DNA of 64,000 nucleotides, taken from the NCBI GenBank assembly GCA_020353515.1, contig CP070695.1, positions 3,710,277 through 3,774,276 on the forward strand. The letters are read 5' to 3'. The notes beneath the pieces were generated by a model, which was not told the DNA's origin, ran no database searches, and was given only the letters and a program-made list of their open reading frames with translations. Shown piece by piece: positions 3,148-16,218 of this stretch. Each line of letters opens with the position of its first letter. Within the stretch, counting starts at the first letter, position 1. The stretch comes from Candidatus Heimdallarchaeota archaeon (GTDB lineage: Archaea > Asgardarchaeota > Heimdallarchaeia > Hodarchaeales > Hodarchaeaceae). A program made the translations under genes and the position numbers.

Positions 3148-4431
3148 TCACCCCTCAGAAAAAAGGATGTCGTAAATCAATTTACCATAATGTTGTTCGA
3201 TTTCAATGATGATTATTTGAAAAAGATCCATAGTAACTTTTTTCCCTGAAATTTTAGCTAAGTTACGAATAATATTATCCATAAAAGGAAAAAAAGCGTG
3301 TTGGAATAAGGGAGCTATTATTTGAGAGCGGGATTTCATTAATGCATGAAATTTTTCAAAATGAAAACCCTTTTCATAATTCTCAACTAGTTTCGCCACA
3401 CAGATTATTCTTCCCTTGTCATTGGCGTATACTAAATCCTGATGAAATATAATCTCAAATAAATCGAATGTAATGAAATCTCCAAGCATTCTTATTAAAT
3501 GTTGACGGAGTACATTGAGGAATTCTGTAAAAATTATTAATAATAGTCTATCATCAGTTAATGGCTTAATATAACCAGCTAGAGATAAGTAGCGAAATAG
3601 CTGAGTCATTCGCATCTCTCCTTTTTCGGTTAATGATAATTTAGCGGAAAGAGATGATATTGTATGCTTACCATCAATTTTTTGGGTGATTTTAACCCCC
3701 CAATCTCCCCAATATTGTTTGATTGCGTGAAAAGCTCCCCCTTGTTCTAAAAGAATACCAAGGTGGGCATCTTCTATTTGAAAAATATCTGTTCCTCTTA
3801 TAGAGATATCAATAGACTTAATATATCCTAATTCTTGGAGCATAGCTGTTCTTGTAATAACATATGGTAAAGGCCAATTTAGATTTCGACTAATTTCAGT
3901 TAATGATTTTTTTCCATCGAAATTCTTTAGCAAAGGGATAAATTTTGGTGAAATTTGGAAACTTTTGTTGGTCGTATCTTTTAGGCGTTTATACACTAAA
4001 TTTTCGTCAACATGCACCAGTATGAATTGATTTACAAGATTACGAAATGGCGTGTACTTTTGTGGAACGATATCATGTTTAAGTTCTTCTAAATAGTTGT
4101 GTTCGAACAGATCAATTATTACTCGTATTTTTTCCATTAAAATATGGCTTTCTACATCAACTAGTAAAATGGCAGTTACTTGTTTTCCTCTTTCAAACAT
4201 AATTTTCATGTTTTCCCTCTCAATAACGTTTAAGGAGCCACTCTCACCAGATATGTTGTCCATTATATTATCGGAAAAGGTCGAAATAGCACTAGCAAGC
4301 CCCCCAATGATAAGTCCGTCCGTATTGGGGGCAAAAACACTGAATCGAATATCAAATAACGATAACCCTTCAATGTGTAATAAAAAATATATTGGCCTTC
4401 CTTTGATTTTGGCAATAGATTTTTCACTCAT
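3148..4431 (-). CDS. Longin-like N-terminal domain plus two winged-helix repeats (NPRL2-like architecture)
   Basis: N-terminal GL..F.....LIIGGLASAISTF...LNVIERENMKIMFERG..VTAILLVD longin-like pattern; two repeats (F/I)DGK(K/H)(S/T)..(E/S)(I/L)S..L...L...GYIK. Confidence 0.55.
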   Translation of the reverse strand: MSEKSIAKIKGRPIYFLLHIEGLSLFDIRFSVFAPNTDGLIIGGLASAISTFSDNIMDNISGESGSLNVIERENMKIMFERGKQVTAILLVDVESHILMEKIRVIIDLFEHNYLEELKHDIVPQKYTPFRNLVNQFILVHVDENLVYKRLKDTTNKSFQISPKFIPLLKNFDGKKSLTEISRNLNWPLPYVITRTAMLQELGYIKSIDISIRGTDIFQIEDAHLGILLEQGGAFHAIKQYWGDWGVKITQKIDGKHTISSLSAKLSLTEKGEMRMTQLFRYLSLAGYIKPLTDDRLLLIIFTEFLNVLRQHLIRMLGDFITFDLFEIIFHQDLVYANDKGRIICVAKLVENYEKGFHFEKFHALMKSRSQIIAPLFQHAFFPFMDNIIRNLAKISGKKVTMDLFQIIIIEIEQHYGKLIYDILFSEG

Positions 4432-13691: not shown

Positions 13692-13779
13692 TCTCATTTT
13701 GAAACAATCGAAATCAATTAATAGTCTATTTTACACTGACTATTATTATTCTGCAAAATCAGACATTGGAGATGCTGAG

Positions 13780-13962
13780 ATGCTATTAGGAAGTAAAGAG
13801 CACTTACTTGAAATCCAAAAACGAGTAAATGAAAATGAGGAATACTTGGAAATGACAAAGGGAGAAGGAAAAAAGGCTTGGAGAACAATAATTCAAAATC
13901 TCATTGTAAGTCCTCCTCCAATAATAGTATCGAAAAAAATTAAAAAAAATTATCAGAGCTAA
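13780..13962 (+). pseudogene. Probable truncated SCP2 (sterol-carrier)-like N-terminal remnant
   Basis: GGAG SD then MLLGSKEHLLEIQKRVNENEEYLEMTKGE resembles the SCP2-like N-terminus, then degrades into unrelated-looking sequence. Confidence 0.35.
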
Positions 13963-14538: not shown

Positions 14539-15081
14539 ATGTCGTTCCCTATGAAAATTATTATGATAGGTGAGGTCAGGAAAGCGGAAATCCTGAAATT
14601 CTATGGAGAGGTCTATAAGAGTGATTTTACGTTAATAGAGGGGGATTTCGCCTTTAAAATTATGAATATAGGCGGTAACACCTTTCAATTCCAAGTCTGG
14701 CAATTATCCCTTGACCCCTCGTTTAGAATTGAAAGAAGAAGATACTATTACGGAGCACTTGGTGCGATTATGGTGCTTGATGTTCTTAATTTGGAAAGCT
14801 TTCATAATTTGCCCTCATGGATAAATGAAATTTGGCATTATAATGGCTTAGAAAAATCAATTCCAATAGTTATTGTGGGTATTAATATCCATGAAAGGGT
14901 GAACACTAGTAAATATATTACTGATGAAGAAATTCATAATTTTTCAAACGAAATGAATCGGAAACATCAAGCAAATATCAACTATATCGCTGTCGATGAA
15001 CGTACAGGTGAAAATGTTGCTCAAATTTGGGATACACTTGGAAGATGGTACATTAGATATTTACAGCAGTTGGAATCATAG
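14539..15081 (+). CDS. Rab/Ras-like small GTPase homolog with degenerate G motifs (pseudo-GTPase)
   Basis: Retains KIIMIG, GDFAFK, FQFQVW, YYYGALGAIMVLD, ESFHNLPSWINE, IPIVIVG, TGENV; G1/G3/G4/G5 all substituted. Confidence 0.8.
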   Translation: MSFPMKIIMIGEVRKAEILKFYGEVYKSDFTLIEGDFAFKIMNIGGNTFQFQVWQLSLDPSFRIERRRYYYGALGAIMVLDVLNLESFHNLPSWINEIWHYNGLEKSIPIVIVGINIHERVNTSKYITDEEIHNFSNEMNRKHQANINYIAVDERTGENVAQIWDTLGRWYIRYLQQLES

Positions 15082-15093
15082 AGTCTATTTTGT

Positions 15094-16218
15094 TTGAAAT
15101 ATCAAGAGTGGCCAGTTATGATCCAGCAAATACCACAGAATCAATTAATGAACTTTTGGCATTATTTTAAGAACCATAAAATGAAGAACCCATTAGCACA
15201 GAATTTAGCTTGGTCGAAAGTGAAAGGATTTTCAGATAATTTAGATAATCCAGATATAGTGATGTTTCTGTTTAATCATTGGGCCTGTTATTTGGCTGGA
15301 AACAACGAATCAGAGAAGCTCAAAGAATTTTTAGCGAAAATTCCAGAGAAAGCAATTATCTATGTTCCCTCCCTAGAGTGGGAACCAAGACTCAAACCTT
15401 ATTGGACTTATTTTGGATATTTATCTCGCACAGAGCTCTCCGCACAGAACTTATCATTAGAGAAGATTCGACGACTATCAACTGCATTACCTGAAGGATT
15501 TCAGATTAAAAGGGTTGACTTAGAAGTAGCAAAACGAATTTTAAGTCAAAATTTAGCTGATCATTGGGTTAACGTAATTAACTATCTTGGAGGGCCCGAG
15601 AAATTTATTGAGGAAGGAGTAGGATTCTGTATTCAGGAAGGTGAGAAAGTTGTTTCTATAGTGATGGGATATAAGGCGTCTATGCCTATTACTCAAAGTA
15701 TTGAATTGGATATTGTAACTCACCCAGATTATCGTGGAAGAGGTTTCGCGACATTAGTAAGTGCTAAACTGATTGAGTATTTATTAAAAGAGGGAATTGA
15801 ACCACATTGGGATGCTGCAAACCCCCTATCTTCAAAATTAGCCACTAAGTTGGGATTTACAGATCCTGAACCATATAAATGTTATTATTGGCGGAATAAA
15901 CCATGGACCATTTCAGAACTTAAAGAAGCTTATGATTCACAATTTAAGAAAGGCTTGGAAAATTTTGAACTTCTCAAATCAGAGATGGGCTCATTTTCTG
16001 CGAAAGGACAGGAAAATGTAGTTAAATATTCCCTCTTGTCCCGCTTGAACAAAATTTATGAATCCATAAATGGAATTCTCTTGAATATCAATCGTTTTCT
16101 TGAATCTAGAATTGTAGCTGACTCTGATATACCTCAATTCAAAGAATATGCTAAGAAGATTAACCTACAACTCAACACTATAGATAAACTTAAACATGAA
16201 ATTCTAAGTCTAGATTGA
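15094..16218 (+). CDS. GNAT family acetyltransferase with C-terminal helical extension
   Basis: IELDIVTHPDYRGRGFAT, PHWDAANPLSSKLATKLGF; real start may be ATG 15118. Confidence 0.85.
   Translation: MKYQEWPVMIQQIPQNQLMNFWHYFKNHKMKNPLAQNLAWSKVKGFSDNLDNPDIVMFLFNHWACYLAGNNESEKLKEFLAKIPEKAIIYVPSLEWEPRLKPYWTYFGYLSRTELSAQNLSLEKIRRLSTALPEGFQIKRVDLEVAKRILSQNLADHWVNVINYLGGPEKFIEEGVGFCIQEGEKVVSIVMGYKASMPITQSIELDIVTHPDYRGRGFATLVSAKLIEYLLKEGIEPHWDAANPLSSKLATKLGFTDPEPYKCYYWRNKPWTISELKEAYDSQFKKGLENFELLKSEMGSFSAKGQENVVKYSLLSRLNKIYESINGILLNINRFLESRIVADSDIPQFKEYAKKINLQLNTIDKLKHEILSLD

Follow-up and report, generated by a model that had tools for sequence, protein, structure and literature searches.

One of the genes in the window (the whole stretch of 64,000 nucleotides analysed here) encodes a small Rab-like protein in which, judging from its sequence, all five of the motifs that bind nucleotide are lost. 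We consider it very likely that this protein is a pseudoGTPase. Two marks of the class-i pseudoGTPases were found, namely a GTPase fold from which the nucleotide motifs have gone, and maintenance by selection, as seen in 8 species and 18 clusters of orthologues. The fuller reading, that this is a stand-alone, Rab-derived class-i pseudoGTPase that acts as a constitutive, nucleotide-independent binding module, is in our view probable, and is consistent with the sequence and the predicted structure. The coordinates of the gene, the remnants of its motifs and its two neighbours are given in Table 1.

Table 1. The pseudoGTPase gene, its motif remnants and the flanking genes, in positions of the window.
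Feature	Position	Strand	Basis and remarks
Rab-fold pseudoGTPase CDS	14539..15081	+	180 aa, stop included; Pfam Ras, AF2 fold, orthologues, dN/dS
G1 P-loop remnant, residues 11-17, GEVRKAE	14569..14589	+	Alignments to Rab1 and to canonical paralogues from the same genome
G3/switch II start remnant, residues 54-59, WQLSLD	14698..14715	+	Alignment
G4 remnant, residues 114-118, GINIH, at the NKxD site	14878..14892	+	Alignment
G5 remnant, residues 152-159, with DER at 153-155 for SAK	14992..15015	+	Alignment
Upstream 4-TM membrane protein gene, 142-147 aa	14092..14535	+	No Pfam family; candidate partner only
Downstream GNAT acetyltransferase gene	15094..16218	+	PF12746, E 1.7e-40; starts 12 nt past the pseudoGTPase stop

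Fold and nucleotide-binding motifs

The relationship of the protein to the Rabs is evident at several levels. It matches the Pfam family PF00071 (Ras) with an E-value of 1.3e-13 and 51 bits, where the cut-off is 21.6 bits, and the match runs over residues 6-168 and profile positions 1-157 of 162; there is no NCBIfam match. When PDB sequences are searched with phmmer, the best matches come from Rab1, with an E-value of 2e-13, and from the Thorarchaeota Rab 7EZB, with one of 5e-13. A structure prediction had been proposed as a check by an earlier note on this DNA, and it returned a confident Rab fold. The AF2 model, built from the orthologue alignment, has a mean pLDDT of 83, a pTM of 0.84 and the complete strand and helix order of a G domain, with the six-stranded sheet and five helices of the Ras superfamily small-GTPase fold predicted to be in place. 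Foldseek gives TM scores of 0.75-0.80 to Rab8, Rab11 and Rab1. In an exhaustive structural comparison (VIA) the top match is Rab23, with a Z of 20.5 and an rmsd of 1.8 A over 158 residues; true Rabs lie at Z 18-20.5, and Rabs rank ahead of Rho, Ras and Arf. Segments that align with RabF1, F2, F4 and F5 are recognisable and conserved in the alignments. None of the orthologues has a C-terminal cysteine that could be prenylated, and this cysteine is also absent from the canonical Asgard Rab-like proteins (PMC4915359).

To map the state of the motifs, all sequences were aligned to a profile of 22 Rab-like paralogues, all canonical and all from this genome. This profile, together with the phmmer alignments, upholds the assignments that the earlier note had made for G1, G3, G4 and G5. 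The strings that it quoted (GEVRKAE, WQLSLD, INIH and DER) are all found where it placed them, the Rab scaffold segments that it named are present in the translation, and the reading frame is uninterrupted over its full length, as it had claimed.

At G1 the pattern GxxxxGK[ST] is absent, with three residues fewer, both loop glycines gone and an alanine in the place of the Ser/Thr. Counting between two anchors, from the first glycine of the P-loop to the glycine that ends helix 1, there are 13 residues, versus 16 in the closest canonical paralogue. The shortening, which the earlier note had also reported, appears in the phmmer alignments as a 3-residue gap relative to both Rab1 and the Thorarchaeota Rab. 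In the AF2 model strand 1 stops at residue 10 and helix 1 starts from residue 13, and the two-residue turn between them is so short that it would leave no room for an anion hole; the confidence of the model is just moderate here (pLDDT 57-68 at residues 11-40, i.e. the P-loop, helix 1 and switch I). At G2 the switch-I threonine is replaced by Ile33 in the profile alignment. The DxxG(Q) pattern of G3 is lost through three substitutions, the Asp to Gln55, the Gly to Leu58 and the catalytic Gln to Asp59, and the sites that align with the guanine-recognition motifs G4 (NKxD) and G5 (SAK) read INIH and DER.

This genome has 64 Ras-family matches, 59 of them with an intact GxxxxGK[ST], and the pseudoGTPase is one of only two full-length Ras-family reading frames that are without G1, G3 and G4 together.

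The same genome also holds a second, unrelated-looking set of Rab-like proteins without a P-loop (G000:C1:313759-314343 (-), 340883-341407 (-) and 2885966-2886373 (-)). These proteins, of 227, 287 and 180 aa, have a segment of the Pro-Asp-Glu/Asn-Leu type at the P-loop site; DxxGQ is retained in one of them, and one is extended at the N-terminus by a Cys-rich stretch. Degenerate Rab-like proteins of two or more families are thus present in this genome.

Conservation, constraint and origin

A search of 5.8 billion clustered proteins gave 18 clusters of orthologues, 58-87% identical and all 176-181 aa long, and those that are named come from Hodarchaeota, Heimdallarchaeota or 'Promethearchaeota' MAGs. 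The same altered motifs are found in all 18 clusters and in 8 species. The earlier note had suggested looking for orthologues with the same substitutions, and this is borne out: 39 columns of the orthologue alignment are invariant, and they include Q55, L56, D59, G114, T156, G157 and N159 of the substituted motifs.

We obtained six full-length orthologous loci, all of which translate without stops. The dN/dS comparison that the earlier note had also called for gives pairwise values of 0.07-0.20 (Nei-Gojobori, NG86). Most pairs are saturated, with a dS above 1, and their omega is approximate. The exception is the least saturated pair, the window and the locus L001, for which dN is 0.072, dS is 0.70 and omega is 0.10. 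These values, and the persistence of the altered motifs across the family, agree with the view of the earlier note that this is a selected pseudoGTPase and not the product of random decay.

A useful yardstick is the closest canonical paralogue (G000:C1:2907856-2908359 (-)), which is 34% identical to the pseudoGTPase and has a nearly identical N-terminus; it is the closest by sequence only, the true sister clade not being settled by the tree. Across the same six species pairs this paralogue is 95-99% identical (with saturated dS), and dN in the pseudoGTPase family is 3-8 times higher. The pseudoGTPase is thus under purifying selection, which is weaker than that on its very constrained canonical relative. 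The orthologues of this relative (L051-L072) share the same first 40 residues in almost every sampled species of the genus, and such extreme conservation points to a core cellular role for the canonical protein.

The faster evolution of the family is one of two observations that would suit a functionless, decaying relic of a duplicated Rab-like gene; the other is its patchy distribution. Against decay stand the intact frame of every orthologue with a complete sequence, the low dN/dS (with saturated dS), the 39 invariant columns and a conserved start-codon and ribosome-binding context. The 8 genomes without the gene that were searched, moreover, show a clean absence with no pseudogene remains. 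We consider a relic extremely improbable and have rejected it, since selection, intact frames and clean absences all contradict it.

The distribution is narrow. In a comparison of 83 genomes of the class, the true orthologues (268-349 bits) are limited to 8 of the 22 species of the GTDB genus to which the window belongs. In 13 of the other 14 species there is a match to the canonical paralogue only, at about 140-147 bits; the genome G059 gives no match at threshold, and G057 gives a partial match only, of 109 bits. Completeness reaches 90% or more in at least seven of the genomes without the family. That 14 of the 22 species of the genus do without it indicates that the pseudoGTPase is dispensable. 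In a library of 1.84 billion representatives the family falls into one 50%-identity cluster, scoring 303 bits, and below it no match exceeds 159 bits.

Some of the more distant relatives share part of the degeneration. The same P-loop deletion with altered G4 and G5 is found in P0023, from a JGI metagenome, and in P0024 and P0027, both from one MAG labelled Odinarchaeota. P0213 has the deletion and altered G4 and G5, yet it retains canonical G2 and G3 motifs. In P0025, P0026, P0028 and P0035 the P-loop is kept and G3 or other motifs are lost. In a maximum-likelihood tree of 55 rows (LG+C20+F+G4) support is 100/99 for the core family (stem length 0.55), 98/91 for the core family with P0213, and 100/98 for the 16 P-loop-deleted sequences together; this last clade takes in sequences from outside the genus, and altered G4 and G5 segments are common to it. 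The group of Asgard Rab-like proteins within which the clade lies, some canonical and others partly degenerate, is weakly resolved (a polytomy, 88/92). The G2 and G3 motifs of P0213 indicate a stepwise loss after a single deletion, and the simplest history that the sequences suggest is one P-loop deletion with loss of G4 and G5, followed by loss of G2 and G3 at least twice.

It is also informative to ask where in the protein the constraint lies. The mean column entropy over the whole protein is 0.83 bits in the family. The P-loop remnant, at 1.31 bits, is as variable as surface loops and is among the most variable segments, and the most conserved segments include the interswitch strands (0.46 bits), switch II (0.62) and the altered G5 (0.39); strand 5 is at 0.28 bits and the G4 remnant at 0.83. 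No other element of working GTPases is as conserved as the P-loop. Set against this, the variable remnant indicates that constraint has shifted to the former switch and interswitch face. The positions of the Rab hydrophobic triad, which in Rabs serves effector binding, fall on F37, W54 and Y69 in an alignment with Rab1, and they are retained in most members.

From a predicted Rab fold, a loss of nucleotide contacts and purifying selection focused on one face, we infer a constitutive binder that is free of nucleotide. The specific mechanism, on which we lean towards the following account, would be this. The protein would keep the complete small-GTPase fold and would no longer hold GTP or GDP, with a phosphate-binding loop three residues too short and devoid of its glycines. 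The ligands of Mg and of the gamma-phosphate (the Ser/Thr of the P-loop, the Thr of switch I, and the Asp and Gly of DxxG) are all replaced, as are the guanine-recognition motifs NKxD and SAK. Selection now bears on the remodelled segments of G3 and G5 as well as on the former switch and interswitch face, and the protein would constitutively show a partner one fixed conformation of a Rab-like effector or regulator face. Partners would thus dock on the switch/interswitch face of the Rab fold. The neighbouring genes provide two candidates, the co-oriented 4-TM protein and the GNAT protein; others are the proteins that the closest canonical Rab-like paralogue binds, although the genes next to that paralogue (in L069) offer no hints, being without a Pfam family. 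The partner may also be an effector or regulator common to the canonical Rab-like paralogues, which would make the pseudoGTPase a decoy or an adaptor.

A different reading of the same segments is that the pocket has been remodelled to bind a nucleotide or another small ligand in a non-canonical manner, and that the protein is still a regulated switch. A basic residue (Arg or Lys) is usually retained at the position of the P-loop lysine in the orthologue alignment, and with the conservation of the G4 and G5 remnants this would allow for such a pocket. However, the P-loop is short by three residues and has neither of its glycines, and few segments vary as much as its remnant. Gone too are the Mg ligands and the Asp that confers guanine specificity, and the conserved part of G5 (Thr-Gly-x-Asn) is structural in canonical Rabs too. 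A remodelled pocket is therefore improbable in our estimation, and a nucleotide-independent binding module is the reading that we prefer.

Genomic context and the 4-TM neighbour

The pseudoGTPase gene adjoins a gene for a membrane protein with four transmembrane segments (4-TM), for which no Pfam or NCBIfam family was found. The two are neighbours in 7 of 7 loci with full context, on the same strand in five (with gaps of 3-41 nt) and inverted in two, where a short-chain dehydrogenase gene lies between them. In the window, L001 and L002 the stop codon of the 4-TM gene is 3 nt ahead of the pseudoGTPase start, making co-translation likely in these loci. In L003, L004, L005 and L006 the pseudoGTPase has an upstream region of its own, in some cases with TATA-like and SD-like elements.

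This arrangement raises the possibility that the pseudoGTPase is a membrane-tethered subunit, which binds cytoplasmic loops of the upstream 4-TM protein in a joint membrane complex; the tethering would replace the lipid anchor that is absent from Asgard Rab-like proteins. The constant adjacency and the short gaps in five loci are in its favour, as is the overlap of the 4-TM stop with the ribosome-binding region of the pseudoGTPase in three loci. Furthermore, all genomes that have the pseudoGTPase with a readable context also carry the 4-TM gene.

The converse does not hold. The 4-TM gene is part of a conserved block that comprises AllG, small reading frames, two SDR genes, the 4-TM gene, a variable slot, an M42 peptidase gene and an ABC transporter, and in at least 8 genomes this block is found with no pseudoGTPase gene in it. 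These include L040 and L041, whose slot is filled by a 2-hydroxyacid dehydrogenase or an alpha/beta hydrolase gene, and six further species of the genus. A tblastn search of 8 genomes that are without the pseudoGTPase found no remains of it at the same slot (within 1.5 kb in six of them). The adjacency may therefore be inherited synteny, and the link that it provides is weak. In addition, two loci have the 4-TM gene inverted, with another gene between and with TATA-like and SD-like signals that belong to the pseudoGTPase itself, the distant P-loop-deleted relatives have unrelated neighbours, and the 4-TM protein is similar to a bacterial DUF that is widespread. A complex prediction for the 4-TM protein and the pseudoGTPase, made with both alignments, scored 0.00 where the mark is 0.32, a result that counts neither way. 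All told, we regard a membrane complex of this kind as unlikely, and retain the 4-TM protein as a candidate partner at long odds.

Some features of the neighbours themselves can be recorded here. The 4-TM family has 31 aligned members with the invariant polar residues Glu51, Asp58, Asp97 and Asn117, and the alignment suggests that these sites fall inside its membrane-spanning segments. By language-model features the protein is similar to clusters of the bacterial DUF8058 (PF26247), which is a lead only; one distant homologue carries the Pfam domain DUF8058. In 5 of 7 genomes the pseudoGTPase is followed by the GNAT gene, whose product in the window (15094-16218 (+)) matches PF12746 at residues 46-264 and is extended at the C-terminus by about 110 residues without a Pfam match. 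Further upstream, an 87-aa reading frame at 13699-13962 (+) looks chimeric: the front part is similar to a conserved 144-aa protein (L001 3221-3655), and the last part to the C-terminal end of a short-chain dehydrogenase (L001 4556-5545). This suggests a deletion of about 2 kb that removed two SDR genes present in L001, L040 and L041. A gene of the longin type is found at 3148-4431 of the window.

No neighbour shared by the distant P-loop-deleted relatives P0023, P0024 and P0027 was found, and the genes around them are unrelated. In L074 (5001-6799, JGI metagenome 3300041085) P0023 is followed by a canonical Ras-like GTPase of 192 aa and an Arf/RagA-like reading frame of 111 aa; the trio is flanked on either side by a protein longer than 1800 aa, and may include a pseudoGTPase-GTPase pair. 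In L073 (5001-7078, MAG GCA_048885365.1) the genes after P0024 encode a DUF4332 protein and a membrane methyltransferase of the ICMT/PEMT family. In eukaryotes the ICMT family methylates the tails of prenylated GTPases.

Known systems and implications

By structure and ancestry the closest known proteins are the Asgard Rab-like GTPases, such as Thor-Rab 7EZB (PMC10933270, PMC4915359). They have the same fold and size as the pseudoGTPase, but keep G1-G5 and bind GDP and GTP, whereas the pseudoGTPase has lost all five motifs, has a shortened P-loop and is predicted to bind no nucleotide. Degenerate or pseudo forms are not mentioned by Tran et al. 2024 (PMC10933270) or by Surkont and Pereira-Leal 2016 (PMC4915359).

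In function, the protein is by analogy most likely akin to the eukaryotic class-i pseudoGTPases. Good examples are CENP-M and the pG1 and pG2 domains of p190RhoGAP, which are conserved GTPase folds without the motifs and which serve as scaffolds for protein interaction (PMC10211241). The likeness consists in the same conserved GTPase fold without nucleotide motifs. The differences are that the pseudoGTPase has an independent origin, from an Asgard Rab-like clade, and is known here from its sequence and predicted structure, and that it is a stand-alone archaeal protein, whereas CENP-M is part of the kinetochore complex and pG1 and pG2 are part of a multidomain GAP. The atypical GTPase-like domain of FBXO4 (PDB 3L82) and ligand-free RABL3 (PDB 6VIH) are lower structural matches, with Z of 14.2 and 14.7. 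They too are small-GTPase folds used without a canonical nucleotide cycle, as we propose for the pseudoGTPase, but they are eukaryotic, have no sequence relation to it and are far less similar than true Rabs.

In the literature that we searched, which lacks most subscription journals, we came upon no report in print of a pseudoGTPase from an archaeon. Searches that combined pseudoGTPase or pseudoenzyme with Asgard gave no paper, and the reviews found for pseudoGTPase and archaea contain no archaeal example. In print, pseudoGTPases are a eukaryotic feature, of which the protein in the window is a stand-alone archaeal variant.

A broader and more tentative idea, which we think possible though doubtful, is that a clade of switch-less Rab-fold adaptors extends across several Asgard groups. 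It would have been founded by one P-loop deletion, and its members would offer a permanently 'on'-like or 'off'-like face to the effectors or regulators of their canonical sister GTPases. The protein in the window might then act at the membrane, via the co-transcribed 4-TM protein. If true, this would be a prokaryotic precedent for the reuse of dead GTPases as scaffolds in eukaryotes, and one from the closest lineage to the eukaryotes.

The family is a narrow one, confined to 8 of the 22 species of one genus and a few distant relatives. Asgard archaea have dozens of Ras-, Rab- and Arf-like GTPases, which are discussed as forerunners of the switches of eukaryotic membrane trafficking. A Rab fold that stands alone, is kept by selection and has probably lost its nucleotide site would mean that the Asgard GTPase families have already diversified into binding modules that are not switches. 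As a small, soluble protein, the pseudoGTPase may also provide a testable handle on what the faces of Asgard Rab-like proteins bind.
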